Assembly (NCBI GenBank): GCA_964350735.1
Contig: CAYGKO010000001.1
Coordinates: 115,339 to 179,338 of the forward strand
Direction of reading: 5' to 3'
Origin: an uncultured Candidatus Saccharibacteria bacterium
GTDB taxonomy: Bacteria; Patescibacteriota; Minisyncoccia; Phycocordibacterales; UBA918
DNA length: 64,000 nucleotides
In this document: positions 4,144-40,222 of the stretch, piece after piece
How the letters are laid out: every line of letters starts with the position of its first letter
How positions within the stretch are numbered: position 1 is the first letter of the stretch
Made by a program: the position numbers and the translations under genes
The notes under the pieces: model-generated
Told to the model about the DNA's origin: nothing
Database searches by the model: none
What the model saw: the letters and a program-made list of their open reading frames with translations, nothing else

Positions 4144-4734
4144 ATGATTCGACACCTCACCGGCCGCGTAATAGATGCCTCCCCTACCAGCGTAGTCTTA
4201 GACGTCGCTGGCGTTGGATACTTGGTCTACACTACTAATGCGGGGACCAACTTTGCTACCGACTGTGAGGTGCACTTATGGACATACCAGGCTGTACGTG
4301 AGACAGCGCTCGACCTGTACGGCTTTACCACGCGAGATGAACTCGAAATCTTTGAACTATTACTCACCCTGCCGAAAGTCGGACCAAAGTCAGCTGCTGG
4401 TATCCTCGCTCAAGCTGACATTGAGCTGCTGAAAAAAGCCGTCCTCGAGAATGACGCGACCTACTTATCAAAGATGTCAGGGATTGGGAAAAAGACAGCG
4501 GAGAAGATTGTATTGGAACTAAAAGATAAATTTGAAAACCTAGGCGGTGCTGACGCGAGCACGTATGGTGCCAACCAAAGCAGTGACAATGCCATCATGA
4601 GCGACACTATCGATGCGCTCGTCTCACTAGGGTACCCGCAAGCAGACGCGAGGCGCGTGGTGCAACAACTCCCACCCGAGATCGACAATGCTAATGACGC
4701 GGTTCGGGCTGCCCTCAAGGTATTGAGTAGTTAA
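4144..4734 (+). CDS. ruvA: Holliday junction branch-migration protein RuvA
   Basis: MIRHLTGRV...VVLDVAGVGY...LLTLPKVGPKSAAGIL (HhH) ...; start at the internal ATG 4144 (the ORF-track N-extension begins with TTG). Confidence 0.85.
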   Translation: MIRHLTGRVIDASPTSVVLDVAGVGYLVYTTNAGTNFATDCEVHLWTYQAVRETALDLYGFTTRDELEIFELLLTLPKVGPKSAAGILAQADIELLKKAVLENDATYLSKMSGIGKKTAEKIVLELKDKFENLGGADASTYGANQSSDNAIMSDTIDALVSLGYPQADARRVVQQLPPEIDNANDAVRAALKVLSS

Positions 4735-4799
4735 GACCTTTGTGGTGTATCGCCACAAATACTCCCCTCCCACGCGCTTTCTGCGTATACTACGTATAT

Positions 4800-6086
4800 A
4801 TGGAACACATGCTGTACTGGATCAAACGATTTCTACCGACCTCGCTTTTAAATAGTATCCGGCCGCTCTATCACTATTCTCTCGCTTGGCTGGGCGCCAC
4901 TATCTACCGCCACCCCTCAAAACACATTACCGTGCTCGCAGTAACTGGCACTAAAGGCAAGTCGACTGTTACCGAGCTGGTGACAAACATTCTTGAAGGT
5001 GACGGCAAATCAGTGGCATCGCTCTCTACGATTCAATTTAAAGTTGGCAACGACGTACGCCCAAATCTTTACAAAATGACCACCCCCGGGCGCTTCTTCG
5101 TGCAGTCATTCCTGCGTGAAGCCGTTGACGCCGGCTGTATTCACGCGGTCATCGAACTCACCTCAGAAGGTGCAAAACAGTTCCGTCACAAATTCCTGGA
5201 ACTTGATGCACTGATTTTTACCAACCTGACACCAGAACATATCGAGTCACACGGTTCGTTTGAAAACTACAAGAACGCCAAGTTACAAATCGCCAAACAG
5301 CTTGAAGCATCGGTGAAACAACCTCGCTTCATCGTCTCCAATACCGACGATGAACATGGCACGGACTTCTTAGCTGTCGACGTAGAAGAAAAAATCCCGT
5401 ACGGTTTAAAAGATCTTAAACTTTATACCCTGCACAAAGACGGGATCGGCCTCATTTTTACCGACGGCGAAGACGAACGAACTATCCGGGTTCCGCTCGT
5501 CGGACTCTTTAATGTCTACAACGCCCTAGCAGCTATCAAACTGACTCGAGCTCTCGGAGTGTCACTTAATTCTATCGAGAAGTCCTTGCGGTCATTACCC
5601 CCAGTCAAAGGTCGGGTGGAACATGTGTATAGCCCAAAGGAGGCCACCAAACAAGTGACCGCCATCGTCGACTACGCCCACACTCCCGACTCACTCGAAA
5701 AGCTCTACCAGGCCTTTAAAGACGTGCCTAAGATTGGTGTACTCGGTAACTGTGGTGGTGGCCGCGACAGCTGGAAGCGCCCGGAGATGGCTAGTATCGC
5801 CGAACGCTACTGTGACTACATCATTCTCACTAACGAAGATCCGTACGATGAAAATCCGCGGCAGATCGTCGAGCAAATGACTAAAGGAATTGAAAACAAA
5901 GAGAAATTTGAAATCATCATGGATCGGCGAGCAGCTATCGCCACCGCGATCAAGAAAGCTCCGTCCGGTGGCTACGTGCTCATTTCTGGTAAAGGAACTG
6001 ATCCGTACATCATGGGACCAAACAACACCAAAGAACCTTGGAGCGATGCTGAGGTAGCGGCTGAAGAATTAGCGAAGCTAACGTAA
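4800..6086 (+). CDS. murE: Mur ligase family protein, probably UDP-MurNAc-tripeptide synthetase MurE
   Basis: VTGTKGKST P-loop, DNPR-like C-terminal domain (NEDPYDENPRQI), GKGTDPY; 429 aa from ATG 4800. Confidence 0.65.
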   Translation: MEHMLYWIKRFLPTSLLNSIRPLYHYSLAWLGATIYRHPSKHITVLAVTGTKGKSTVTELVTNILEGDGKSVASLSTIQFKVGNDVRPNLYKMTTPGRFFVQSFLREAVDAGCIHAVIELTSEGAKQFRHKFLELDALIFTNLTPEHIESHGSFENYKNAKLQIAKQLEASVKQPRFIVSNTDDEHGTDFLAVDVEEKIPYGLKDLKLYTLHKDGIGLIFTDGEDERTIRVPLVGLFNVYNALAAIKLTRALGVSLNSIEKSLRSLPPVKGRVEHVYSPKEATKQVTAIVDYAHTPDSLEKLYQAFKDVPKIGVLGNCGGGRDSWKRPEMASIAERYCDYIILTNEDPYDENPRQIVEQMTKGIENKEKFEIIMDRRAAIATAIKKAPSGGYVLISGKGTDPYIMGPNNTKEPWSDAEVAAEELAKLT

Positions 6087-23044: not shown

Positions 23045-23361
23045 ATAAAGTCTTTCGGCGCCCCATCTGCACCTAGCCGTCCTTTTAAATGAGTGAGTAT
23101 CTCTTTTTTATGTAACAGAAGTTCTGATTTCAACGGCCCGCCAGATTTCAAAGTAATTATCCGAGTACTTGGTTTATATGACACATTACTCTCTTTAACT
23201 GCAATATCTAAAAGATCAGCTACAACCTCGACAAATGCTTTTCGCACACTTGCTTCTGGGGCTTTTAGAATGTTTTTATACTTAGCAAACAAATCCCCCA
23301 CCTTCACAACCTCACCACGACCAAACCTTCGCTGCTCTTTAGTTTTCTTAAAGGCAGACAT
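23041..23361 (-). CDS. Hypothetical protein downstream of dnaN (positionally DciA/DUF721-like, unverified)
   Basis: 106 aa basic protein; start overlaps the dnaN stop. Confidence 0.3.
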   Translation of the reverse strand: MSAFKKTKEQRRFGRGEVVKVGDLFAKYKNILKAPEASVRKAFVEVVADLLDIAVKESNVSYKPSTRIITLKSGGPLKSELLLHKKEILTHLKGRLGADGAPKDFI

Positions 23362-24455
23362 TACTTATTCATTGGCATCACAAGATATCGAAGTGACTTA
23401 TCATTCACTCCTTCCATCACCATTGGGCGTCCGATACCAGCCATATGTAATACGATACTATCGTCACTAATATGACTTAAAGGTTCTGATACATACCGCT
23501 GATTGAAACTTAAAGTGAGTTCATCACCTTCAGTACTTGCTCGTACGGATTCGGTAGTTGTTCCAACCTCACCACTATTAGCTGAGACTGTGATTGAGTC
23601 TTTTGTGACATGCACACCAACTTGAAAGAATTTATTTAAAAAGATATTCGTCTTCTTAAATGCGTGACTAAGATCATTTTTAACCAACGTTGAATGGGTG
23701 ACGTATTCTTTTGGAATAATCTGCTCATAATCCGGAAATGAGCCTGTGGTAAGACGTGAGGTTATGTATACCCCATCAGAAAATTCTAAAGAAAACTGAT
23801 TTTCATTAACTCGACAAACTGGGTCAGTATCTTTCATATCACAAACCCTCGATAATTCGACAGCATTCTTTTGTGGTAGTAATATTGACTCTTCAAAAAT
23901 AACTCCTTTTTGCGGCACTGTTTTCTCCATCAAACGAAACGAGTCTGTTGTAACAAAAGTAAGGCTTTGTTCTTTCTTTTGAAACACATAAATACTTCCA
24001 AGCTCTGGTTTAATTGAAGATTGTGAAGCAGCAAAGGCTGTTGTTTTTATACCTAGAGAGAATAAATTATTATTTATCACTTGTCCTTCGGTTGTAAGTC
24101 TCGGGATAGTTGGAAACTCTTCATGTGGAATACTTTTAAGCGTGGTTTCAGAACCAGTCCCTTCAACTACTAGCGAATTATCTTCAACTTTTAAGGTAAC
24201 TTCTTTTTGAGTATGAAGATTTATTATTTGAATCAAGGTACTAGCCGGAACGGCAACACAACCAGTCTCAACAATAGTTGCTTTGATTTCAGTTTCAATC
24301 CCTATTTCAAGATTTGTTGCTTTAAGTACACACGTCCCTTTATTCACTTCAAATACCACACATTGAAGAACTGGGAGTGTTACATGTTTTGTACTAACTC
24401 TTCCAACGAGATCTAATTTTTCTTTTAACTCCAAAGTATCAACCGTAATGTGCAT
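23361..24455 (-). CDS. dnaN: DNA polymerase III beta sliding clamp
   Basis: 364 aa, three-domain clamp pattern, position downstream of dnaA. Confidence 0.85.
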   Translation of the reverse strand: MHITVDTLELKEKLDLVGRVSTKHVTLPVLQCVVFEVNKGTCVLKATNLEIGIETEIKATIVETGCVAVPASTLIQIINLHTQKEVTLKVEDNSLVVEGTGSETTLKSIPHEEFPTIPRLTTEGQVINNNLFSLGIKTTAFAASQSSIKPELGSIYVFQKKEQSLTFVTTDSFRLMEKTVPQKGVIFEESILLPQKNAVELSRVCDMKDTDPVCRVNENQFSLEFSDGVYITSRLTTGSFPDYEQIIPKEYVTHSTLVKNDLSHAFKKTNIFLNKFFQVGVHVTKDSITVSANSGEVGTTTESVRASTEGDELTLSFNQRYVSEPLSHISDDSIVLHMAGIGRPMVMEGVNDKSLRYLVMPMNK

Positions 24456-24791: not shown

Positions 24792-26207
24792 TTATTTGAG
24801 TAGGAGTCTAATTTGCGTAATTTCTTCTTCGAGCTCGTTGTTATCTTTAAGGTCATTTTTTACCTTTTCACATGAGTGAATTACAGTTGTATGATCACGA
24901 CCCCCCATTTTTTGTCCAATGGCTGGGTATGAGACTTGGAAATCTTCACGCAAGATATACATAATGAGCTGGCGAGGCTTCACTACCTCTTTACGACGAG
25001 TTTTTTCGTAGATTGATGACGGATCAATGTCGAAGTAGCGAGCGACTTTATCTACGACATCAGAAACAGCGAGGGTTTTCCGAGGCCGGGTGCTATTTTT
25101 GATGATCTGTTTTACCTCATCAAGTGAAAGGGTCCGCCCAAGTAGTTGTGACTGACACATAATAGTGTTTAAAGCTCCTTCTAATTCTCGGATGTTCCCT
25201 TCAATGGTGTGCGCAAGATGTTCGACCACATCGTCACTAAGTGAAATACTATTTTGAGCTGCTTTAGCTTTAAGGATTGCTGCTCGCGATTCGAGATCTG
25301 GCGCTGGGATATCAACAATCATCCCTTGAGCGAAGCGCGACTGTAGTCGTTCTTCCATTCCATTAAGTAACGCTGGGTGGATGTCACTTGAAAATACAAT
25401 TTGTTTGTTTGTGTCGTGTAGAGCATTAAACAGGTGAAATAATTCCTCCTGCGTCTTCTCTTTGTTAGTTAAAAACTGGACATCATCCATGATAAGAGCA
25501 TCATATTGACGGTACTTGTCTTTGAAGCTATTGGCGGTTCCGTTTTGTAGAGAGTTGAAATAATCAACAGTAAACCGCTCACTCGTGACATAAAATACTT
25601 TTTTACCCTGTCGCTTCAGGTGATTGCCTACTGCCTGGATGAGGTGGGTTTTACCATGGCCGGTTTTACCGTAGATAAACAATGGATTATAAGTGATACC
25701 TGGTTTTTCACTCACTGTTTTTGCTGCAGTATGAGCTAAAGCATTAAAAGGTCCGATTACAAACGTGTCAAAAATATACTTCGGGTTAAGGTTGTCACTC
25801 TTATTGATGTAATACTCCTCTAGGGGTAGGGCTGCGTTTACGGTTTGTTGTTTTGTTTCTTGCCGCTTGTCATTTCGTTGTACGACAGCGTACTCAATGC
25901 TTCGCACGTGTGGAGTGAGGTCCCGCAGGGTTTTAAGGATGAGTGACTGGAATTTATCCGAAAGCCAATCTCGGACAAATACACTCGGGACACCGATAGT
26001 GATAGTTCCGTCTTCAAGCGAAACAATGTGGGTATCTTTAAACCAAGTTTTGAAATTGGCGGGAGTAATTGAAAGTTCGACAGAGACTAAAGCATCATCC
26101 CACAGCTTTTTTACATCAACTTGTTCAGTTTCAATGATGCTATTACGAGACGAAGAGTGTGTAGTGGGATTCATACCAATCAAACAGACGTTTAAGGTAA
26201 GAAGCAT
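24792..26207 (-). CDS. dnaA: Chromosomal replication initiator DnaA
   Basis: GKTGHGKTHL Walker A, AAA+ box, C-terminal HTH (HTTVIHSCEKV); alternative start at 26174. Confidence 0.9.
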   Translation of the reverse strand: MLLTLNVCLIGMNPTTHSSSRNSIIETEQVDVKKLWDDALVSVELSITPANFKTWFKDTHIVSLEDGTITIGVPSVFVRDWLSDKFQSLILKTLRDLTPHVRSIEYAVVQRNDKRQETKQQTVNAALPLEEYYINKSDNLNPKYIFDTFVIGPFNALAHTAAKTVSEKPGITYNPLFIYGKTGHGKTHLIQAVGNHLKRQGKKVFYVTSERFTVDYFNSLQNGTANSFKDKYRQYDALIMDDVQFLTNKEKTQEELFHLFNALHDTNKQIVFSSDIHPALLNGMEERLQSRFAQGMIVDIPAPDLESRAAILKAKAAQNSISLSDDVVEHLAHTIEGNIRELEGALNTIMCQSQLLGRTLSLDEVKQIIKNSTRPRKTLAVSDVVDKVARYFDIDPSSIYEKTRRKEVVKPRQLIMYILREDFQVSYPAIGQKMGGRDHTTVIHSCEKVKNDLKDNNELEEEITQIRLLLK

Positions 26208-29698: not shown

Positions 29699-30490
29699 CT
29701 ATGGTTGACTGCACTGAAATCCAGTGACGATTCCCTCTGCGTTCCTAACTTGTTTAGCACCATGACAACCGGTAGGCCTACCCGGGTTACCAGGTTGTCT
29801 GTCTTTAAATGTGCAACCACAAACTCGCTCAGCATAGTCAGCCTGCTTTTCTAGCACATTTTTTAATACCTCCCCTTGAACATCTGCTCCTTGAGAGCCG
29901 TTTAGTGCCGCCTCTTCTTCTTCAGTTAATTCAATAGTTTCAAAATCTTCATCAATCTCTATATTTTGTTCACGCAATCTCTGTGCCTCAGTTTTACTTA
30001 CAGAGCAAGCCCCATCTTCACCAGTAGCAGCACAAAATGATATAACCTCTACTCCTCCCCGCGCATTAAACACACAGCCCGGCTTTGGGTTATTAGGGTC
30101 TGAAGAATCCTTCGGGCTACATATCTCTTCTAAGGCTGTAAAGTCTGTCAGCTTTGGATTAATGGTCTCTAAAATTAACACTGCTCCCAGCACAATCAGT
30201 AACCCTAACAACGCACCTTGAATTTGCTTCTTAGCCGCTCCTTTATCAGTTACCACGTCACTCAACATGTACTGAACACCAGCTAAAATGATTCGGACTA
30301 CCGCTAAGAACGCAGCGACTGAGATAGATAGAATGTAGAGTGCGTTGATGTAGCCAGCGGTAGAGAGATTGTTGGGATCGAGGCCGGGGATGCCGACGAG
30401 TGGTTTATATGAATTGATAGTTTCTTGTCCAAATGTAGCTAGGGGTAAAAAGAATAAAATAAGTAGTAGCAGTAAACGCAAATTGAACAT
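29699..30490 (-). CDS. VirB2/TrbC-topology pilin-like protein B with divergent Cys-rich C-terminal domain
   Basis: Different signal peptide and C-terminal domain; the central 115 aa are identical to pilin A. Confidence 0.45.
   Translation of the reverse strand: MFNLRLLLLLILFFLPLATFGQETINSYKPLVGIPGLDPNNLSTAGYINALYILSISVAAFLAVVRIILAGVQYMLSDVVTDKGAAKKQIQGALLGLLIVLGAVLILETINPKLTDFTALEEICSPKDSSDPNNPKPGCVFNARGGVEVISFCAATGEDGACSVSKTEAQRLREQNIEIDEDFETIELTEEEEAALNGSQGADVQGEVLKNVLEKQADYAERVCGCTFKDRQPGNPGRPTGCHGAKQVRNAEGIVTGFQCSQP
30057..30401. repeat. 345-bp perfect direct repeat, copy 2 (inside pilin B)
   Basis: Identical to 28067-28411; offset 1990 bp. Confidence 0.9.
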
Positions 30491-30491
30491 A

Positions 30492-31448
30492 TTAAAAACG
30501 CAGTGTGAAGTTATTTTGAACCCCTTGTAGTAATTGGGTTAAGTTACGAATATGGAATTCAATTTTGAAATTGCCGTTTCCTCCACCATTTTGTAGAGTG
30601 ATAGTTTGTTGATCTTCGTTGGGGTTTTGAATCACTGATCCATTAATTGACCACTCCAGTAATGGGTTGCTTTCAAATATTGATTCATCCATGTAGTACG
30701 GCTCAGCTCGAACATCAACTTCTGGGCCAACCAAGCTGTAGACAGTGGGTACAGAAATCCGGGAGATCCCGCGCAGTGGGTTGTCGGGATAAAAATATAA
30801 TTCTGGCTGCACAGCTGGAATGACGAGGCTGTCGCTCGCAATTACTTCTCCTGTTTGAGTGAGTACATCAACTCCTAATATAGCGTCTCTACCCATCGGC
30901 ATCTGGAATTCTGCTACATGTTTACCTTTAATAGAACCTCCAAATAATACCTTGTTGTTTAAACGCCACACGTATGAGTAGTTTTTAGGGTCGGTACCGT
31001 TAATCTGCGGTAGGGCTACAGCTCGAACAGTACTGTCGGTAGAAGGTAGGGCACGACCTTTGTAGAAACTCGGTGTGAGAGTTTTTGCTTCGATAATTAT
31101 GTCTAGGCGCTGCGGTTGTAGAGTATACGTAACAGGAATAATACGGCCAACACGAGTGGTGATTTCTGCCATTATTTTATTTATTGACCCAGCCACTGGT
31201 GCCACTAGCTCAATAGTTCGATTATTAGCAGCTGGCAATAATTCTTCATCGTCAACAAACCACTTGATACTTCCACCGCTAGTATCGATAGTATAGGCAT
31301 TGAGTGACAGTTCGACAATTTCGCCTGGTTCAGGAAAACGCGGGTCAGCAATAATTGAAATATTTGTCTCGCCAGTCAATGTTTGGGCTGAACCAAAACA
31401 TGGGAATACTAATAATAACAATATAAAAATAGATCGGAATCGATACAT
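30492..31448 (-). CDS. Secreted protein of unknown function (signal peptide), T4SS-cluster member
   Basis: MYRFRSIFILLLLVFPCFGSAQT signal peptide; 318 aa. Confidence 0.4.
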   Translation of the reverse strand: MYRFRSIFILLLLVFPCFGSAQTLTGETNISIIADPRFPEPGEIVELSLNAYTIDTSGGSIKWFVDDEELLPAANNRTIELVAPVAGSINKIMAEITTRVGRIIPVTYTLQPQRLDIIIEAKTLTPSFYKGRALPSTDSTVRAVALPQINGTDPKNYSYVWRLNNKVLFGGSIKGKHVAEFQMPMGRDAILGVDVLTQTGEVIASDSLVIPAVQPELYFYPDNPLRGISRISVPTVYSLVGPEVDVRAEPYYMDESIFESNPLLEWSINGSVIQNPNEDQQTITLQNGGGNGNFKIEFHIRNLTQLLQGVQNNFTLRF

Positions 31449-31479
31449 ACTACAAGAATACCATGGGTAAATGCTGCTA

Positions 31480-32193
31480 TTACCTCGTGATGTAGGTAGC
31501 GCCAGCCCAGATAGTAGCCCACGGGAGCATTCCTCCCGAAAGAGGGGCTATAGATAGCGCTAGTAAAATTATAAAAGTGTAGGTACTCATAAAAGTTAGA
31601 AGCTTAATTTTATTCATTACGAGATAAGAAGAACACATACTAAATATCGCGATCAGAGAACTGATAAGCCATCCAACAGCGAAGAAGATATATCCAAAGG
31701 TGGCAGGATCAATAAATAAATCAAGGAAAGGAATATATTCAGTAAGAGTAGTGCCAAAAGCAGCCAGTGCCGCGCCAAATAAACTCATAACCCAAAAAGA
31801 TAAACCTAACTGCCAGCCAAGGAAAGTGATTGGTATAACAATTCGGCCTACAAATAATCTTCTCGCTACACCTCTGGCGAGACGAATCATTATATTTTGT
31901 TTTTCTGATCCCCGCGCCACTTGAGTAAACGAGTTTTGTTGATTTGGCTGTAATAGCCAGTCGTTTACATCATCATGAGATTTTTTTGCTAGTTTTTTTG
32001 TTGAGAGCGTGCGGGCTCCATATTGGACGTGATTGAATTGGCTGCTGATGTCACGCTTATCTAGATTGTCAGCCAACATTTTTGAGCGCAAGCTCATGTT
32101 TTTTCGAACAGCTGCCCGGCCTATCTTTTTAACTTTTTTAACAGCCTTGGATCCAACTACTTGTGCTGTTTCCACAATAAGAGGTGCAGCCAT
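31480..32193 (-). CDS. Membrane protein (basic N-terminal region, about 4 C-terminal TM helices), T4SS-cluster member
   Basis: 237 aa; sits directly downstream of virB4. Confidence 0.4.
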   Translation of the reverse strand: MAAPLIVETAQVVGSKAVKKVKKIGRAAVRKNMSLRSKMLADNLDKRDISSQFNHVQYGARTLSTKKLAKKSHDDVNDWLLQPNQQNSFTQVARGSEKQNIMIRLARGVARRLFVGRIVIPITFLGWQLGLSFWVMSLFGAALAAFGTTLTEYIPFLDLFIDPATFGYIFFAVGWLISSLIAIFSMCSSYLVMNKIKLLTFMSTYTFIILLALSIAPLSGGMLPWATIWAGATYITR

Positions 32194-32196
32194 ATA

Positions 32197-34008
32197 TTAT
32201 TGTTGTGCTGCTTGGAGTTCCTCGCGGGCCTTTTTGATTTGTAAAATCTGAGACGGGTCAGAAGTGATGATTTGGTCCTCGGTGTAACTGGCGATTACTT
32301 TGATAGCGACGTGTTTAAGACCAGCAAAGAAGATCCCCTCTCCGACCCCTGATTCGAGCAAGAGTAGTTTTTCTTCGTCAGTGAGATTGAAGGTATTTTG
32401 AATGTTGTCGATCGCGGTCGGCGATTGCTTCATAAGAAGTTGTAGTGATGAGTTGGTGATCATTGGGACTCCATACGGTGAGCGCAAGAAGTCATCGACA
32501 TCTTGAGTGATGGTTGAGAGACCAAGATAATATTTTCGCCCTCGCTTTGCTAACATAAATAAGAAAGAGGCTGTGTCTTCACTTTTCATCATCCACCATG
32601 CCTCGTCAATTACCAATAAGCGCTTAGTCAGACGTCGTCTGATAGCACTCCAAATATGATTAGTGATTATGTACATCGCCACTGTTTTAAGTTCGTCTTC
32701 CATGTCTCGAAGGCTGAACACTACAAACTTTTGGTTTACGTCGACATTGGTTGCTTTGTTCATGAAGCCCGACCACGTACCAGAAGTGTACTTTTGTAGT
32801 CGAGAGATTAATGAAGAGCTCCCTTCCATTCCGGCCAATACCATCTCAAAATCAGTTAACAGTGGAGGTTCAAGATCAGCAAAGTTACTGTCACCAGTGA
32901 TGTCTTTAAGGGCGTAGGTTTCTCGGAGAGCAGTATCAACAATGGTTTCTTCTTCTGGTGATAGTCCCCCGAGCATTAGGCGGAATAGACCGATGAGTTC
33001 GATGATGTGTGAGCGTAATACATCATCAGGATTTTCATCTGGTTGCGGGGCTGGCAAATCAAACGGATTGATATGATGCGAGGAAGAAAGTGAAATATTA
33101 AAGAATCGGCCACCAGTAGATTCTGCCAGGTATTCATATTCACGCTCCGGATCAATCACGATCACTTCAGTTCCAAACATCAGTGAACGAAGAATTTCAA
33201 GTTTAGTTGTGTATGACTTCCCGGCTCCAGAAGTCGCAAAAGTTACCGAGTTGTAGTTAGTGAGTTGGTAACGATCAAAAAGAACGAGACTCGAGTTGTG
33301 ACGATTAATGCCGTACAAAATACCGGTGTCTGAAGTCAGGTCAAATGAAGTGAAGGGAAAGAAACTAGAAAGCGGTGAAGAATTGAATTTGCTGTGCACC
33401 AATAGCTCGTCAGTCATAGTCGGAATGATACTCTTCATTCCTTGCTCTTGTTGGAAAAGCGCTGGCTTTAGATACACCAAGCGTGAGTCGAGCATTCCTT
33501 TTAATTCAGCTTCGGTCTTATTTAATTCAGCTTCGTCTTCACTATGAATAGCGATATAGAGACCGACATTAAATAATTTTTCCTCGGCTTGTTGGAGTTT
33601 ATCCCGCAGATCTTCCAAGTTTCGGTAGGCTGCTTCAAGTTGTGGGTCACGGACCATCCCCCGTTCGGCATTGGTATTGATCTGGCTTTGTACCTCAGCT
33701 ACTTTTTTCTGAAATTTCTTTAACGTATCAGCCGTATCAATGGGGTGAATCACGATTGAGACATCCATTTCACGTTCTAGATTAAGGATGGGTTCGAGCC
33801 AGCCATCATTCAGGTAACGAGGATATGAAATGGCAAAAAATACTCGTGAAAGCGTCCCGCTAATATTAATACTGCGGGGATTTATATTTACGGCTGAAGG
33901 GGCAATAACATCTTCAAGCGTCATTAGGGCGTTGTCACCAATATCTACGGTGTCATCAGGGTTGGTAGATGCTGGTTTCTTTGGTTGTAAAAAATCTAAG
34001 AAAGCCAT
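32197..34008 (-). CDS. virB4: VirB4/TrbE/CagE-family T4SS ATPase, ATPase (C-terminal) portion
   Basis: Walker A TSGAGKSYTT, Walker B LLVIDEAWWMM, conserved GLSTITQDVDDF motif; 603 aa. Confidence 0.8.
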   Translation of the reverse strand: MAFLDFLQPKKPASTNPDDTVDIGDNALMTLEDVIAPSAVNINPRSINISGTLSRVFFAISYPRYLNDGWLEPILNLEREMDVSIVIHPIDTADTLKKFQKKVAEVQSQINTNAERGMVRDPQLEAAYRNLEDLRDKLQQAEEKLFNVGLYIAIHSEDEAELNKTEAELKGMLDSRLVYLKPALFQQEQGMKSIIPTMTDELLVHSKFNSSPLSSFFPFTSFDLTSDTGILYGINRHNSSLVLFDRYQLTNYNSVTFATSGAGKSYTTKLEILRSLMFGTEVIVIDPEREYEYLAESTGGRFFNISLSSSHHINPFDLPAPQPDENPDDVLRSHIIELIGLFRLMLGGLSPEEETIVDTALRETYALKDITGDSNFADLEPPLLTDFEMVLAGMEGSSSLISRLQKYTSGTWSGFMNKATNVDVNQKFVVFSLRDMEDELKTVAMYIITNHIWSAIRRRLTKRLLVIDEAWWMMKSEDTASFLFMLAKRGRKYYLGLSTITQDVDDFLRSPYGVPMITNSSLQLLMKQSPTAIDNIQNTFNLTDEEKLLLLESGVGEGIFFAGLKHVAIKVIASYTEDQIITSDPSQILQIKKAREELQAAQQ

Positions 34009-34010
34009 AT

Positions 34011-34652
34011 TTATTGGTTGGGGGCGTTACCTGCAATATCGCCGGGATTGAAGATATGATAGTAGAGTTCAACTAATTCTTCGTTTTGTAAGGCGACAGT
34101 TTTAACACCAACTCGGTTGAGTCCTTGTTCGACGACAGTGACTCGTTGTTCTAGCTGAGTACGATGCTCTGCAAATGACTGATCTTCAATCACTACATTT
34201 TTCTTGGCCCCAAATAGGCTGCTAATATTGGACTTGAGATTGATATCAACTGGTGTATACGGAATTACTACAAAGAAGTTCTTGGTCATGATATCAACTT
34301 CGCTAGTGAATGTTTTCACAAACTGCATATACTCTCGGAGCTGAATCTTCATGAGGTCGTTATATTGATCATCTTCTCGGGCTGCTAACAGTCCAAGATA
34401 CGGCTTGATGTCTAGTCGTCGTGACTGCACGTAAATCTGTAATGAAAAATCAATGGTGTTTAAAAATGATTGAAACTGTCGCAAAATAGAAGCTTGTTCA
34501 TCAAGAGACTTAAGGGCAAAGTTGATAGAAGAGGCTAAGAGCACCATGTTCATCTGTCCGTTTTTTAAGACCACCACCCCATCACGAATATCTTGCACGG
34601 GGACAAACTGTTGGGTGGAAGCTTGATTTTGAGTTTTTGTTTTTGCAGGCAT
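34011..34652 (-). CDS. VirB4 N-terminal domain encoded as a separate ORF (split or frameshifted virB4)
   Basis: FVPVQDIRDGVVVLKNGQMNMVLLASSINFALKSLDEQASILRQFQSFL matches the N-terminal module of Gram-positive/CPR VirB4 homologues; TAA-AT-ATG junction with the next ORF. Confidence 0.5.
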   Translation of the reverse strand: MPAKTKTQNQASTQQFVPVQDIRDGVVVLKNGQMNMVLLASSINFALKSLDEQASILRQFQSFLNTIDFSLQIYVQSRRLDIKPYLGLLAAREDDQYNDLMKIQLREYMQFVKTFTSEVDIMTKNFFVVIPYTPVDINLKSNISSLFGAKKNVVIEDQSFAEHRTQLEQRVTVVEQGLNRVGVKTVALQNEELVELYYHIFNPGDIAGNAPNQ

Positions 34653-34653
34653 A

Positions 34654-35082
34654 TTATTTTTCTTGTTGCAGGGCTTGCAGTTCTAACTTGCGAGATAGCG
34701 AGTGGATATTACTACCTGACGTTGGTGGAACGTACGAAGCGATTGGAGTATTTCCAGTGTCTTCATTGTTGTAGAGGACGTCGGTTTTTTTTCGCCATAA
34801 GTATAAACGACTAGTACTGAAGTATTGTAAGGCGGCTTCTAAGAAGACTGAAAATGGGCGGTTATTGACTGGGTAAAACGCCAACAGAAACGCTAGGCCA
34901 GCGATTGGTAGTCCTAGTAAAACAAATACGATGAAATTAGTGGTCAAAAATAGTACTACCGCGATACCAGCCCCACCCATTAGGTAGACGAATTGCTTCC
35001 AAGTGAATGGACCAAAAATCTTATCCTCAATTTCAATAAATTGTGGTACCTCAAATCGCATAATCGTACCACTATTATACAT
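34654..35082 (-). CDS. VirB3-like small membrane protein
   Basis: Small membrane protein with a hairpin-like TM pair immediately upstream of virB4, as for VirB3/PrgI/ConD analogues; start uncertain (35112, 35082 or 35061). Confidence 0.35.
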   Translation of the reverse strand: MYNSGTIMRFEVPQFIEIEDKIFGPFTWKQFVYLMGGAGIAVVLFLTTNFIVFVLLGLPIAGLAFLLAFYPVNNRPFSVFLEAALQYFSTSRLYLWRKKTDVLYNNEDTGNTPIASYVPPTSGSNIHSLSRKLELQALQQEK

Positions 35083-35086
35083 GGCT

Positions 35087-35119
35087 AACGCGGGTGGAAG
35101 CTTTGCTTCCACCCGCGTT
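35087..35119 (-). other. Perfect 15-bp-stem hairpin inside the operon, between the acidic protein gene and the VirB3-like gene
   Basis: aacgcgggtggaagc-ttt-gcttccacccgcgtt, no T-run. Confidence 0.5.
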
Positions 35120-35124
35120 ATCCC

Positions 35125-35670
35125 CTACTCTTCTCCTTCAGTATACGACGGGGGTTTCGCCAGTCGGTCTTTTTGCAAAGCATCAGTTTGAGTACTGCTG
35201 TGCACCACCTCAGTCTCTGCTTCGTAGGCGGCATTAGCTTGTTTCAAAGCTCCATAACCGTGCACTTTTTTCATATCGTCTGACATGGTGCGGAGTGGTG
35301 TAATTCCAATTTCATCACTAGGGTTTGCAGTTCTGATAGTCGCTTTTTTATTGTTATTTTCTTCAGTTAGAAGAGGTTCAGATTCTATTCTGATCCCAGC
35401 TACATCTACTGATAGAGGAATTTTTATTAATTTTTCTAAAAATTCCTCCAGGTCATTTATTACCGATTTCTCAAGATTAATTTCATCAAAAGCAGATGAA
35501 TCACTGATACCTAAGACCCTGTCTGTGATAGTGTTTGTTATATCTATCCTAGAGTCTTGTGGTATCGCATGTTTTTCTAAAAATTCACTTATTTTATTGC
35601 TGTCAATAAAGTCTTGCACCGCTTGCGGGGCGTTTTGATAAGCCTTTGAAAATGTGTTCCAGTCTGACAT
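35125..35670 (-). CDS. Acidic soluble protein of unknown function, T4SS-cluster member
   Basis: 181 aa, no TM helix. Confidence 0.4.
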   Translation of the reverse strand: MSDWNTFSKAYQNAPQAVQDFIDSNKISEFLEKHAIPQDSRIDITNTITDRVLGISDSSAFDEINLEKSVINDLEEFLEKLIKIPLSVDVAGIRIESEPLLTEENNNKKATIRTANPSDEIGITPLRTMSDDMKKVHGYGALKQANAAYEAETEVVHSSTQTDALQKDRLAKPPSYTEGEE

Positions 35671-35680
35671 AGTTAATTAT

Positions 35681-37762
35681 TTAGGGTGAAAACCCTGCGA
35701 TAGCAAATTGACCACCATAAGAATTTCCAGTGACCCAACCACGCCAAGCACTTCGAACACTTCCTGGAGCAGTATCATAATAAGGTTGGAATTCTGCGAC
35801 TATTGATGCTAATTCAGGAGTAGATAAACCATTCTTCATTCTTTCTTGCAAGATTGCCGGTGTTAGGTATGGGTACATTGCATTTTTTGTGAATACTTCA
35901 GGGTCAATCTTACCAGCCTCTTCGTTACTCCGCGCAAACACATCACTATGTGTAATACCATGAGTCGTACTTCCAGGAGCAGCGCTAGCAACAGCAATAA
36001 ATGCATCGTTTCTCGCTTTTTTTAGACTATTTTTATCTGGGTCAGCCAGATCAAGGTCATCAATTTGTTTTGCCGATAGAGTGACAGCATTTTTTGGTTT
36101 AACCAACTCTGTAAGTGGAATAGATCCAAGCTTATCTTTACTGAGTTTACCAACATTTTTAGGCCCACTTGCTGTGCCAACAGTAGCTAGAACACCCTCT
36201 CCCCGTTTTGTCGCTAGCTGATTTCGGAATTCATCATCCAGCTGATCATTATCCATGAGAGATTTAACGTGGTCTCCTTTAAGAATGGCAGCATTTGCAA
36301 TAAGTGTTGCCCTACCATCGGCTGTTTCAGCCAGCTCTTTAATCTGGGCAGAACTTGCATTATAGAGGGCGCGTTCACGGACATCCTGATCGCTACTTCC
36401 TAAGTCTTTACGCAGGTCTCCAACAGCGATGCTTCGAGTTGCGCGCTGACGCCGTTCTGTACTTTGCTTCTCTACGTCAGCGCGCCCGAGACCACCACCA
36501 GCTTTATAGTCTCGAGCCGCGGTGAGGCCACGCCGAGTAGATTCACCACCTAATAAGGTGCGAGTTACTTTTGCTGTGGTACTACCACTTTCGGCAGCTC
36601 TATCCATACGATCCCAAAGATTGCGGACACCACCAGCAGGTAAGCCAACACCAGTTCGGTAGGCTGCCCCAGCAGCTGCTCCTCGTGCTGCATTACCAGC
36701 GCTTTTCAGGGCACCTAAGGTTGCTCCAGCGGCTGAAGAGCCCATTTTTTGGGCTATCATCATAGAAGCAATCATAAATCCAGCGGCTACAAAGAGCATA
36801 AGGAAAGCTCCAAAACTGCCATTGGCCGTATAGCCATCTTCAAAAGTAGATCCTTGTAGAGGCATTGCACGCAGAACGTTTAGTGAAATAAACATCATGA
36901 AAAGAAAAGCTGGCGCGATGAAAGCGTGTTTAAAAAATTCTGACCACCAGTATGATTGCGCTCGTTCTAATTTTGGAAAGATAAATCCAGCAAACATAAG
37001 CGGCGAAAAAATCATGAACACAATCAGCATTACAAACCGCTTCACTAAGATTAGGGCAGCGGTGGCAAAAATGAGTCCAATAATGATCATAAAAATCATC
37101 ATTAAAAATCCATACACGATTACCTTTACAGACAACCAATCAGCCTCACCACTCATCTTGCTGGCTATAGCCCCTTTATCAAATGAGCTAAACCCAAGAA
37201 CGTTCATGATTCCTCCAGAGATGCTTTTACCAGCCTCAGCTTCACCAGTTCCGATAGTTTGCCCATTGATTGTGTAACTACCAGTGATAGTAATTTGGTC
37301 GTAAATTTGGGTAGCTGCGATATTTGAAAAATCTATTATAGTTTTTGTTATTAACAAGCTGAAGTTAATAAGCAGGGCTGCAATAATAAGTTTTCCTAAT
37401 AATTTACGAGTATCTGCTTTACCTGAATCAAGAATAGTTTGAATACCAATATAGACTAACGCAAAAATAAAGAGCATATTGAGTAAATCACGCACAACTA
37501 CCCAAAGTTGATCCACTGCAACACCAACAGTAGCAGTTAAGGTGTCACCCATTTTAATAACTAGTTCAAGTATAGCGAAATCCAACAATGTCCCTCCCAA
37601 CCAAACTACAGCTCCTCCAATACCAATAAAAATAAACCAAAAAAAACTTTCAATTACTGTGCCTGCCCACGAAGTGGCGGCTGCAATTTGTGGCACAGTG
37701 GCACAAAAGAATAGAACAAGTGTGGGAAGTAGGTATTTTGTTTTTTTAGAATTTAAAAACAT
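35681..37762 (-). CDS. VirB6/TrbL-like polytopic membrane protein with long Gly/Ala-rich and hydrophilic C-terminal extension
   Basis: Signal peptide, then at least 6 TM helices in the first 350 aa, GAAxGAA tracts, roughly 300 aa hydrophilic tail; start at the internal ATG 37760-37762, which abuts the upstream gene. Confidence 0.5.
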   Translation of the reverse strand: MFLNSKKTKYLLPTLVLFFCATVPQIAAATSWAGTVIESFFWFIFIGIGGAVVWLGGTLLDFAILELVIKMGDTLTATVGVAVDQLWVVVRDLLNMLFIFALVYIGIQTILDSGKADTRKLLGKLIIAALLINFSLLITKTIIDFSNIAATQIYDQITITGSYTINGQTIGTGEAEAGKSISGGIMNVLGFSSFDKGAIASKMSGEADWLSVKVIVYGFLMMIFMIIIGLIFATAALILVKRFVMLIVFMIFSPLMFAGFIFPKLERAQSYWWSEFFKHAFIAPAFLFMMFISLNVLRAMPLQGSTFEDGYTANGSFGAFLMLFVAAGFMIASMMIAQKMGSSAAGATLGALKSAGNAARGAAAGAAYRTGVGLPAGGVRNLWDRMDRAAESGSTTAKVTRTLLGGESTRRGLTAARDYKAGGGLGRADVEKQSTERRQRATRSIAVGDLRKDLGSSDQDVRERALYNASSAQIKELAETADGRATLIANAAILKGDHVKSLMDNDQLDDEFRNQLATKRGEGVLATVGTASGPKNVGKLSKDKLGSIPLTELVKPKNAVTLSAKQIDDLDLADPDKNSLKKARNDAFIAVASAAPGSTTHGITHSDVFARSNEEAGKIDPEVFTKNAMYPYLTPAILQERMKNGLSTPELASIVAEFQPYYDTAPGSVRSAWRGWVTGNSYGGQFAIAGFSP

Positions 37763-37763
37763 A

Positions 37764-39329
37764 CTATAAACCAGAGAGGGTACATGCTGTACGTCCAACC
37801 TCGATCGCTTCTTCAAGCTCATCTTGGGCATTTTGTAATTCGTTCTCAATAAAGAGTTCGGTCACAACCAAGTCCACATCGTTTTTAATGGCCCCAGCTT
37901 GCACTAAGTCGAAGTAACGATTAAAGGCCACTTGCTGAGCCGCTGAGCTGGTGGCGGCTTCAAATTGTGACTTAATGCTATTTTCACCCCCAAGTTCATT
38001 TAAGGCCATTTCTGCAAGACTAATTTCTTGCTGGGCTTCAATACTGTGGTTAGCAAGTACCTGGAATCGATTGCGGATGGTTGGAATCTCATTGGCGAAA
38101 CAATTCAAAATACCAGTTTGCTCTTCCCCGTTTTCATCAAGGAGGGGCTCGTTAGTATTTGGATCTCTAATTACAATCGTAAATTGAGCGATAGCCTGTT
38201 CAATCTCTATGAGAGAAGACTGTACTTCTCCTCGAATTCTTTCTTGGAGTTGAATATTACGCCGTTCAACTGCAATCGATTCATCGATACTGAGTGCGTT
38301 TCCAACTACTTCGTTATTATTTATAGTTTCTTGCTCTAAAGCCGTTAAGTAATTACGTCCGCTACTTCCTGCAAATGAGGTGTCTTCGTAGCTACTCCCT
38401 CCCATGCCGAGCAGTCCGTAGGCGCCAGTCAACGCTTGTTGCGCTAGTTGCGCAAACAAAGCTCCGATGATCTCATTGATTTCATCCGCTTCGATGAGGG
38501 CTAAAGATCCCGTTTGTAATTCAAATGTCAGTTGATCAGAAATGATTTTTCCTGGGGTGGTGGTTTTACAATCCTCTTTCCCACCCGCTGCACTATCGGC
38601 GTTTTCACAAAATTCTAAGTTAAGGAAGAAATCGTTAGCAGCGAGTAGTTCCAACTTTTTCCCCTCGGCATTTTGTAAGCGAATACCCATTTCAGTACTA
38701 GCAGCTAACACTGCACCAGTTGGGTTGCTGGAAGGGTTTTGGGTTAGTTCAAACCAAGCTGGCCACCCACCTTGTGAAAAATCACCACCAAGGAAACCTT
38801 CTATATTGTCAGTAATTTCTGAGATGGTACATTGTGGTTGATAGTCGCGAGATTGTTGGTATTGGAGTGAAAGGGCAATCCGAACATCAAGCTCAAACGG
38901 GCTACATAAGAAACCAAGTTCAGTGCCATAAATGAAATCTCCGGCTACTTGATCAGCCACATCTAATAAAAATCCATCGAGGTCGGTTACAAAAGCCGGG
39001 CTACCTTGGAAGCCCGAGTTAATCCAATTAAGAATACTGGAGGTCACACCTTTAAGGACGGTTTTCATCAAACCAAAGGCAATACCATCGAGCGTAAGCT
39101 CTTTAATATTGAGGGCAGTCTGGAGACCAGTTTGGACAGTTTCAGCTGCAGCACTGATGGTTGATTCAACTGACGTTTTAATATTTGTTCCAAGGTTGGC
39201 GCTGTCTATTACTGAGAGTGCGGCGTGGGTCGTTTGCACAGATCCGTTATATGAAAATGGAGTTAAAAACAATGCAATTGTAATAAGCAGAAGAATACTT
39301 TTTTTGGTTTTTTGTATTGTTCTAAACAT
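37764..39329 (-). CDS. Secreted 521-aa protein of unknown function (signal peptide, C-terminal coiled-coil region), T4SS-cluster member
   Basis: MFRTIQKTKKSILLLITIALFLTPFSYNGS...HA signal peptide. Confidence 0.4.
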   Translation of the reverse strand: MFRTIQKTKKSILLLITIALFLTPFSYNGSVQTTHAALSVIDSANLGTNIKTSVESTISAAAETVQTGLQTALNIKELTLDGIAFGLMKTVLKGVTSSILNWINSGFQGSPAFVTDLDGFLLDVADQVAGDFIYGTELGFLCSPFELDVRIALSLQYQQSRDYQPQCTISEITDNIEGFLGGDFSQGGWPAWFELTQNPSSNPTGAVLAASTEMGIRLQNAEGKKLELLAANDFFLNLEFCENADSAAGGKEDCKTTTPGKIISDQLTFELQTGSLALIEADEINEIIGALFAQLAQQALTGAYGLLGMGGSSYEDTSFAGSSGRNYLTALEQETINNNEVVGNALSIDESIAVERRNIQLQERIRGEVQSSLIEIEQAIAQFTIVIRDPNTNEPLLDENGEEQTGILNCFANEIPTIRNRFQVLANHSIEAQQEISLAEMALNELGGENSIKSQFEAATSSAAQQVAFNRYFDLVQAGAIKNDVDLVVTELFIENELQNAQDELEEAIEVGRTACTLSGL

Positions 39330-39331
39330 AT

Positions 39332-40222
39332 TTATTCGATACTGCTAGGGAAAGATACTACCCTCTCTGTGCTGTCGGTTTGATCAAATCTTGCTCCAGC
39401 TTCATAAGCAGCATCAAAGACACCAGTAAAAGCAAAAAATAATTTTGTCGCATCATCTTGATATCGCTGCAGTCGGAGCAGCGTATACAAAGGATCTTCA
39501 AATGCTAATTTCATTGCTTCTACGTTTGTCAAAATTATTTGGTATACGTTGAGTAGATCGAGGTGTTCGTTCACTAGTTCGTTGGGAACTGGGGTACGTT
39601 TCATCTCGATCACCATTCCTTGATACGAATCAATAATGACATCTAATTCATTTAGTACTTCAGGGTTTGAACGCTGGATAGCTCTCTCCAAAATCAGCAC
39701 TTCATTTGGGGTATCTGCAGGAATTCCGTTTCTTATAGTTATATCGGCGATCTCGTTTGCGTAGGTCCGGGCTAGTTCGGGTGTTGTATTTGGCAAAATT
39801 ATTATGTCACCTCGACTAAATAATGTGTCGCTTTGCGCATCACGGACGAGGTCAGAGTTTGCTTGGGCAATTAATTCTTCTGGTGTGTCACCAAACTCAC
39901 CAAACTTTTTGTTCTGAACAATTTGCTGAAAAAAGTCCACAGCAAATTGTCCGGTGACAGTGGTTGGAGCTTCATAGGTTGAAGTCGCTATACTATCGAG
40001 TTTGATAGGCTCTTCTGTTCGAAGGGCTTCTTGCCAGTCTGGCACCCCGTTGTTATTTTTATCGTTGCTGCCAATGTAGTTGCGCAGCGGTTGATCACTT
40101 TTTGCGACCACTAACCCAGTTGGAGTACTTTCTATCTCGGCACGATTAAAATGCGTGTATGCGAATGAACCACATACTAGTAATACTCCAAAGACAACTG
40201 CTCCAAAAATGCGTGGATTCAT
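39332..40222 (-). CDS. N-terminally anchored protein of unknown function; first gene of the T4SS-like cluster
   Basis: TM anchor IFGAVVFGVLLVCGSFAY; 296 aa. Confidence 0.4.
   Translation of the reverse strand: MNPRIFGAVVFGVLLVCGSFAYTHFNRAEIESTPTGLVVAKSDQPLRNYIGSNDKNNNGVPDWQEALRTEEPIKLDSIATSTYEAPTTVTGQFAVDFFQQIVQNKKFGEFGDTPEELIAQANSDLVRDAQSDTLFSRGDIIILPNTTPELARTYANEIADITIRNGIPADTPNEVLILERAIQRSNPEVLNELDVIIDSYQGMVIEMKRTPVPNELVNEHLDLLNVYQIILTNVEAMKLAFEDPLYTLLRLQRYQDDATKLFFAFTGVFDAAYEAGARFDQTDSTERVVSFPSSIE

Follow-up and report, generated by a model that had tools for sequence, protein, structure and literature searches.

A probably natural two-cistron VirB4, a TrsD-like protein and a short ATPase, in an origin-proximal type IV secretion operon of a Patescibacteria genome

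Does a virB4 gene that is read in two pieces encode a working protein, or is it broken? We asked this of a 64,000-nucleotide (nt) stretch of DNA (hereafter the window) from an uncultured Candidatus Saccharibacteria bacterium (contig CAYGKO010000001.1, positions 115,339 to 179,338), where a type IV secretion system (T4SS) operon contains two adjacent minus-strand open reading frames (ORFs) that together span the VirB4 family. ORF1 (34011..34652, 213 amino acids [aa]) encodes a TrsD-like, or TraC-like, protein equal to the first ~200 residues of full-length VirB4, and ORF2 (32197..34008, 603 aa) encodes, by its NCBIfam and Pfam matches, an N-terminally short VirB4 ATPase. Read directly from the sequence, ORF1 ends with CCC AAC CAA TAA, followed by the 2-nt spacer AT (34010-34009) and the ATG of ORF2. 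This junction, TAA-AT-ATG, lies at 34006..34013 on the minus strand (within TAAATATG) and shifts ORF2 to frame -1 (+2) with respect to ORF1. An earlier note on this DNA had described the same geometry, a 213-aa and a 603-aa ORF in different frames with a start 2 nt after the stop, and our reading agrees with it. The note listed a genuine split gene, programmed frameshifting or read-through, an inactivating frameshift, and an assembly error as possible accounts. Our findings argue for the first of these: the locus very probably encodes a natural, ancient two-cistron VirB4, composed of a TrsD-like protein and a short ATPase, that belongs to an origin-proximal chromosomal T4SS of the kind typical of Patescibacteria, in what is here a genome of Paceibacteria type. 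This two-gene layout is already published and is found in thousands of Patescibacteria and on some Gram-positive plasmids.

The evidence that carries this conclusion is the conservation of the split. When ORF1 was searched against 5.8 billion proteins, 6430 homologues were returned. Each of the best 120, at 67-100% identity to ORF1, stands alone as a protein of 206-227 aa, and those with a named source belong to Candidatus Paceibacterota or to other, related Patescibacteria. HMMER, run in full over 1.84 billion cluster representatives (50% identity), returned 2178 clusters, and the best 150 representatives (31-66% identical) include only two fused full-length proteins. When one genome per species was scanned, a relative was present in 467 genomes, from which we analyzed 80 loci (79 related genomes plus L001). 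ORF1 and ORF2 are separate, adjacent, and co-oriented in 83 of 83 related loci, each from a separate species or assembly. ORF1 stops at the homologous place in every analyzable locus of the 80 (TAA in 55, TAG in 20, and TGA in 5), and ORF2 has an ATG of its own, at the homologous residue, in every one. Anything from a 4-nt overlap (ATGA) to a spacer of 403 nt lies between them, and 22, 29, and 29 loci have relative frames of 0, +1, and +2, respectively, as expected were frame irrelevant. Protein identity to the window over the 80 loci is 60-75% for ORF1 and 78-88% for ORF2, or 60-88% and 78-97% when the closest relatives are included; the three closest, whose ORF1 is 82-88% identical, have the junctions TAAccATG, TAGttATG, and TAGatacttATG. 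The comparison with orthologues that the earlier note had suggested as a check therefore finds the gene split throughout, with a variable spacer and frame. Together with the free-standing homologues and the purifying selection on both ORFs, this bears out the option of a genuine split gene.

Adjacent ORFs in different frames that jointly span one family are also what a frameshifted pseudogene classically looks like, and an inactivated virB4 in a decaying apparatus was among the options of the earlier note. Since synonymous sites are saturated even against the closest relatives (proportion of synonymous differences, pS, 0.75-0.85), we give pN/pS in place of the dN/dS ratio of corrected distances. 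Nonsynonymous differences from the closest relatives amount to 0.08-0.12 in ORF1 and 0.03-0.09 in ORF2, so that pN/pS is about 0.1 and about 0.04, respectively, and purifying selection acts strongly on both. The catalytic motifs are likewise intact: the Walker A motif GAGKS (ORF2 residues 261-265, 33214..33228, minus strand) and the Walker B motif VIDEAW (residues 466-471, 32596..32613, minus strand) are each preserved in 72 of 72 complete orthologues. Inactivation is also at odds with the identical split in all 83 related loci, with the 6430 homologues of a stand-alone ORF1, and with the essentiality of a homologue in a cultured relative, as reported in a recent survey (PMC12102498). We consider it extremely improbable that this virB4 is a pseudogene.

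Geometry alone would also speak for an artefact, in which an insertion or deletion (indel) error at about 34009-34011 splits one true ORF. A single indel restores one ORF only if it falls within the last 13 nt of ORF1. For this organism there is a second, independent assembly, made by Logan from run ERR3534985 and possibly from the same reads as the first, and it contains an identical ORF1 and the same junction with its 2-nt spacer. Moreover, relatives that come from many projects, assemblers, and sequencing technologies are all split, and their junction sequences differ from one another. With the same junction in a second assembly and the split kept across relatives, the assembly error that the earlier note had allowed for is almost certainly not the explanation.

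A third possibility is that the two ORFs are joined during translation, by a programmed -1 frameshift or, in relatives where the ORFs are in frame, by read-through of the stop codon, to give a full-length VirB4 of 816 aa. ORF2 is indeed in the -1 frame and just 2 nt away, a run of five Cs lies 7-11 nt before the ORF1 stop, and the existence of fused full-length VirB4 forms elsewhere indicates that a fusion would work. On the other hand, a TAA 18 nt upstream of the ORF2 ATG closes the ORF2 frame and leaves only five zero-frame codons (AAC GCC CCC AAC CAA) in which a shift could occur, and none of these holds a slippery heptamer of the form X XXY YYZ. The C-run is missing in the closest relatives L085 and L086, and ORF2 keeps its own ATG. 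Since the frame varies among loci (22/29/29), spacers reach 403 nt, and a whole gene is inserted between the two ORFs in some relatives, no single recoding mechanism can be conserved. The programmed frameshift or read-through of the earlier note thus finds neither a slippery site in the window nor a conserved frame or shift site over the 80 loci, and we judge it very improbable.

The same set of loci yielded three observations of their own. At L024:4640-5036, and at the same place in L027, the TrsD-like gene and virB4 are separated by a complete gene for a 119-aa 23S_rRNA_IVP protein (PF05635, E 8e-36), which is bordered by an inverted repeat of ~17 nt (agtttttagttgtcagt ... actgacaactaaaaact); it looks like a small mobile cassette in the spacer of two different species. 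In L030, L031, L032, L033, L058, and L059, which have spacers of 40-80 nt (about 4610-4700), the motif CTTGCGA[A/G/C]AAT occurs 12-25 nt upstream of the virB4 ATG; it may serve as an internal promoter of extended -10 type (TGcGAAAAT), whose leader would be very short, or as a regulatory site of another kind. At a run of nine As, the virB4 orthologue of L062 (Parcubacteria bacterium OLB19, about 4630-4940) is broken, which leaves a 498-aa remnant with a GTG start; the probable cause is a sequencing error in the homopolymer or true pseudogene formation in that one genome.

The assignment of ORF2 follows from its profile matches. The NCBIfam model conju_CD1110 (NF045971) aligns to ORF2 over profile positions 165-733 of 752 with 361.2 bits and an E value of 1e-107, which passes the cut-off of 325 for this VirB4 equivalog model, and ORF2 covers positions 285-893 of the NCBIfam model VirB4_plasma (Mbov_0397-type VirB4). 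Its Pfam matches are P-loop_TraG, from residue 247, AAA_10, and DUF87, and the NCBIfam scan also gave a weak match to CedB. The gene clusters with others for T4SS membrane components, with a PrgI/VirB3-like gene upstream. We predict from these matches that ORF2 is a VirB4-family T4SS ATPase. Its polypeptide does not carry a complete N-terminal domain, and the segment that corresponds to positions 1 to ~164 of the CD1110 model and 94-278 of VirB4_plasma is encoded by ORF1.

ORF1 is homologous to the N-terminal part of full-length VirB4. It aligns to positions 94-278 of VirB4_plasma and to positions 2-105 of conju_CD1110, and the coverage of full-length VirB4 profiles by the two ORFs is complementary, colinear, and non-overlapping, which means that ORF2 truly lacks the segment found in ORF1. 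When a structural model of ORF1 was compared with known folds, R388 TrwK/VirB4 was the top match by two methods, so the model predicts the fold of the TrwK N-terminal region. A sequence-profile search of the PDB with the ORF1 alignment gave only unrelated proteins (best E 0.9), and VirB4 was recovered by fold comparison alone. The NCBIfam TrsD model (NF041427) matches ORF1 from end to end (protein residues 7-202, profile 9-200 of 201, E 6e-6), with a score of 26.2 bits that does not reach the model's cut-off of 200; by the NCBI definition, ORF1 is a distant relative that lies outside the staphylococcal TrsD subfamily. Aligning the ORF1 alignment to the single TrsD sequence of pSK41 with hhalign gave a nearly uninformative probability of 5.6%, where both sides are probably too low in diversity. 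In precomputed tables, the identical protein P0001 and each of the 120 homologues listed carry PF26593 (TraC-like), and a local Pfam scan of ORF1, using a copy that apparently lacks the PF26593 model, returned no family. ORF1 also has the expected setting, a free-standing gene for ~200 aa between a VirB3/PrgI-like gene on its 5' side and a short virB4 on its 3' side, and this setting recurs in the 83 related loci, in pSK41, and on Firmicutes plasmids. The earlier note was thus right to read ORF1 as a piece of the VirB4 N-terminus, but missed that it belongs to a named family (TrsD/TraD, PF26593) with a known two-gene layout.

The break does not coincide with the boundary of the ATPase. The N-terminal domain of R388 TrwK comprises residues 15-400 (PMC9259494), and ORF2 residues 1 to ~245 precede the P-loop domain, so ORF1 is predicted to make up no more than the first half of this domain in VirB4, and the break to fall inside it. 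The labels of N-terminal module and ATPase given to the two ORFs in the earlier note accordingly stand as two parts of VirB4 but need correction for ORF2, which retains the second half of the N-terminal domain before its P-loop begins at residue 247. The rare fused forms place the break more exactly. In P0151, a fused protein of 797 aa from three Candidatus Colwellbacteria metagenome-assembled genomes, ORF1 covers residues 3-212 and ORF2 covers 225-793. When mapped onto P0151, the N-terminal pieces of all four lineages end at ~209-219 and their C-terminal pieces begin at 225-233, and the break is therefore at one linker in all of them. The other fused form, P0249 (898 aa, four contigs), has a Pro/Ala-rich linker of ~100 aa at the break point (residues 214-319). 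Judged from these proteins, re-fusion appears to be real but rare.

The family also includes proteins with extensions. Low-complexity tails without ORF2 homology are present in 38 of the best 150 cluster representatives of the ORF1 family. In other Patescibacteria lineages, TrsD-like proteins (P0141, P0173, P0195, P0205, P0224, P0228, P0234, and ~30 more) carry C-terminal tails of 60-230 aa that are rich in Pro, Gln, Ala, and Thr, and no VirB4 homology was found in these tails.

A survey of Patescibacteria T4SSs (Quinonero-Coronel et al. 2025, Microb Genom; PMC12102498) describes TrsD as remotely homologous to the VirB4 N-terminus and as the most abundant T4SS component in Patescibacteria, with 2272 homologues in 2221 assemblies, of which 1664 are associated with virB4. 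The survey places TrsD outside Patescibacteria only in the pGO1 subclass of MPF_FATA, and for Ca. Southlakia epibionticum ML1 it lists a TrsD homologue adjoining virB4 as essential, along with further genes of the T4SS. It further reports that relaxases are mostly absent from Patescibacteria T4SSs, that the cluster is often near dnaA, that VirB6 is widespread, and that VirB3-VirB4 fusions are known in some systems, with none in Patescibacteria. The TrsD-VirB4 pairs described there resemble the window in their gene set (VirB4, TrsD, PrgI/VirB3, VirB6, and a VirB2-like pilin), in having no relaxase nearby, in their chromosomal position near dnaA, and in the placement of TrsD directly upstream of virB4. 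Nothing substantive in that account differs from the window, which is a further instance of the pair. The colinearity of TrsD plus a short VirB4 with full-length VirB4, and the linker break within the N-terminal domain, are not spelled out in the parts of the survey used here, and TrsD is absent from the discussion in a review of T4SS nomenclature (PMC12857230).

The order PrgI, TrsD-like protein, VirB4 is common to L082, L083, L085-L087, and pSK41. In the staphylococcal plasmids pSK41/pGO1 (MPF_FATA, pGO1 subclass), as in the window, genes for pilin-like, VirB3-like, TrsD/TraD, and TrsE/TraE proteins follow one another, and in pSK41 a trsD of 227 aa is separated by a 14-nt spacer from a gene for the 672-aa VirB4-like TrsE. 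Residue 1 of ORF2 aligns with residue 3 of pSK41 TrsE (E 4e-34), and both proteins start with MAFL. Unlike the window, pSK41/pGO1 are plasmid-borne conjugation systems with a relaxase and a coupling protein, and ORF1 has very little sequence similarity to TrsD (26 bits). A tblastn search of plasmids found an ORF1-like gene on 73 Firmicutes plasmids, whose products are 23-31% identical to ORF1 over residues ~2-202 and break at the same linker. On the Pontibacillus plasmid NZ_CP062975 (L082:4884-5708), genes for a pilin-like protein, a large membrane protein, and a small protein precede those for an ORF1-like protein of 274 aa and a CD1110-family VirB4 of 621 aa, the last two overlapping by 11 nt. 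On Clostridium perfringens pJFP838A (L083:4911-5849), PrgI is followed by an ORF1-like protein of 312 aa and, after a 130-nt gap, a DUF87 ATPase of 641 aa. At 274-312 aa, these TrsD-like proteins of Firmicutes plasmids exceed the Patescibacteria proteins in length, and they carry a hydrophobic, transmembrane-like N-terminal segment that the latter lack. Full-length VirB4s of 750-890 aa, including R388 TrwK, Agrobacterium tumefaciens VirB4, the Tn916-type CD1110 family, and the Mbov_0397 family of the Mycoplasma integrative and conjugative element, are colinear with ORF1 plus ORF2 (816 aa) and share the Walker A and B motifs of ORF2; they are one polypeptide where the window has two.

Descent from the VirB4 N-terminus leaves room for ORF1 to have become something else, a diverged stand-alone accessory such as a regulator or adaptor with partners of its own, next to an ORF2 that works alone as a minimal VirB4. 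Such a role would fit the faster evolution of ORF1 (60-75% identity versus 78-88% for ORF2) and the long low-complexity C-terminal tails in 38 of 150 family representatives, which are found on no VirB4. It would also fit the lack of an assigned function for TrsD in the literature (PMC12102498), and the existence of short archaeal VirB4-like ATPases of the CedB type, which ORF2 matches weakly. However, ORF1 adjoins virB4 in the same orientation in 83 of 83 loci, the two ORFs cover VirB4 profiles in a complementary way with the ORF1 segment missing from ORF2, and the fused forms are nested among the split ones. The TrsD homologue is, moreover, essential together with other T4SS genes in Ca. S. 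epibionticum, according to that survey (PMC12102498). We therefore regard an independent accessory role as quite improbable, and favor the reading of ORF1 and ORF2 as two halves of one VirB4.

How such a VirB4 would be made is suggested by the packing of the operon. Successive gaps between its minus-strand genes are 2, 1, 10, 42, 1, 2, 3, 31, and 1 nt, of which the sixth, 2 nt, is the one between ORF1 and ORF2. Many same-strand genes in the window are 1-10 nt apart or overlapping, and by crude gene calls over the whole window, 14 of 33 same-strand neighbors are at most 10 nt apart; a 2-nt gap is ordinary for this tightly packed operon. Shine-Dalgarno cores are not enriched at crude gene starts in the window (3 of 53, compared with 6.8% at random positions), and none was found at 74 ORF2 orthologue starts. 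The organism appears to rely on Shine-Dalgarno-independent initiation and tight coupling throughout.

Under the two-cistron reading, the first ~200 residues of VirB4 would be made separately as ORF1, and the second half of the N-terminal domain with the P-loop ATPase as ORF2, each translated from one tightly packed polycistronic mRNA. The 2-nt spacer and the lack of a Shine-Dalgarno core suggest that ORF2 most likely starts by re-initiation of terminating ribosomes, and such translational coupling would yield the two proteins in roughly equal amounts. The products may then associate non-covalently to rebuild a complete VirB4 N-terminal domain, which would dock on the PrgI/VirB3 anchor. In R388, VirB3 wraps the VirB4 N-terminal domain, which is also the VirB4 dimer interface (Mace et al. 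2022; PMC9259494), and because of this we place ORF1, by analogy, as the PrgI-proximal part of the putative complex. The break sits in a poorly conserved linker, the same one as in the Firmicutes plasmids and in pSK41 trsD/trsE, and the halves are occasionally re-fused, as in the 797-aa Colwellbacteria protein. It is conceivable, though in our view unlikely, that the split is also functionally exploited, with the TrsD-like protein acting as a dissociable adaptor that sets the docking of VirB4 subunits on PrgI/VirB3 or their pairing, by analogy with the role of the R388 VirB4 N-terminal domain in central and outside dimers (PMC9259494). In such a scheme, the long Pro/Gln-rich tails found in other lineages could bring in further partners for a non-conjugative, host-dependent use of the T4SS.

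A split VirB4 opens no new biological question, and what we add to the published layout is modest: the mapping of the break to a linker inside the N-terminal domain, the variation of the junction, the rare re-fusions, and the gene insertion. The practical consequence is for annotation, where the pair risks being mistaken for a frameshifted virB4 pseudogene and ORF1 being labelled 'hypothetical', although ORF1 is conserved and probably essential to the T4SS of Patescibacteria. Fission, re-fusion, and gene insertion also amount to a natural experiment in which the VirB4 N-terminal domain tolerates a cut at one linker, and this cut-tolerant linker is useful for construct design in structural work on monoderm and Patescibacteria T4SSs.

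The remainder of the operon, which spans 29699-40222 in the window, is consistent with a T4SS. Immediately upstream of ORF1, at a distance of 1 nt, is a gene for a small membrane protein of the PrgI family (VirB3-like; 34654..35112, minus strand; Pfam PrgI E 5e-10, with 40 bits where the cut-off is 27), which probably begins at the ATG for a 142-aa product, the start called in L001. A 263-aa secreted or membrane protein (29699..30490, minus strand) is a candidate VirB2-like pilin, with a Pfam T4SS_pilin match (E 0.0019, 18.7 bits) under the cut-off of 26.6. At least six operon genes, of 181, 237, 318, 521, 296, and 388 aa, matched no family in the Pfam and NCBIfam scans, and no relaxase or coupling protein was found among the window ORFs scanned. 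The cluster is chromosomal, with dnaA (24792-26207) about 6 kb from the operon and dnaN (23361-24455) on the same side, and with ksgA and a UvrD-type helicase on the other flank. A large polytopic membrane protein of 693-722 aa (35681..37849, minus strand), which has many hydrophobic segments and no Pfam or NCBIfam family match, is a candidate VirB6-like protein by position only; the Pontibacillus plasmid cluster has a 779-aa hypothetical protein at the corresponding position.

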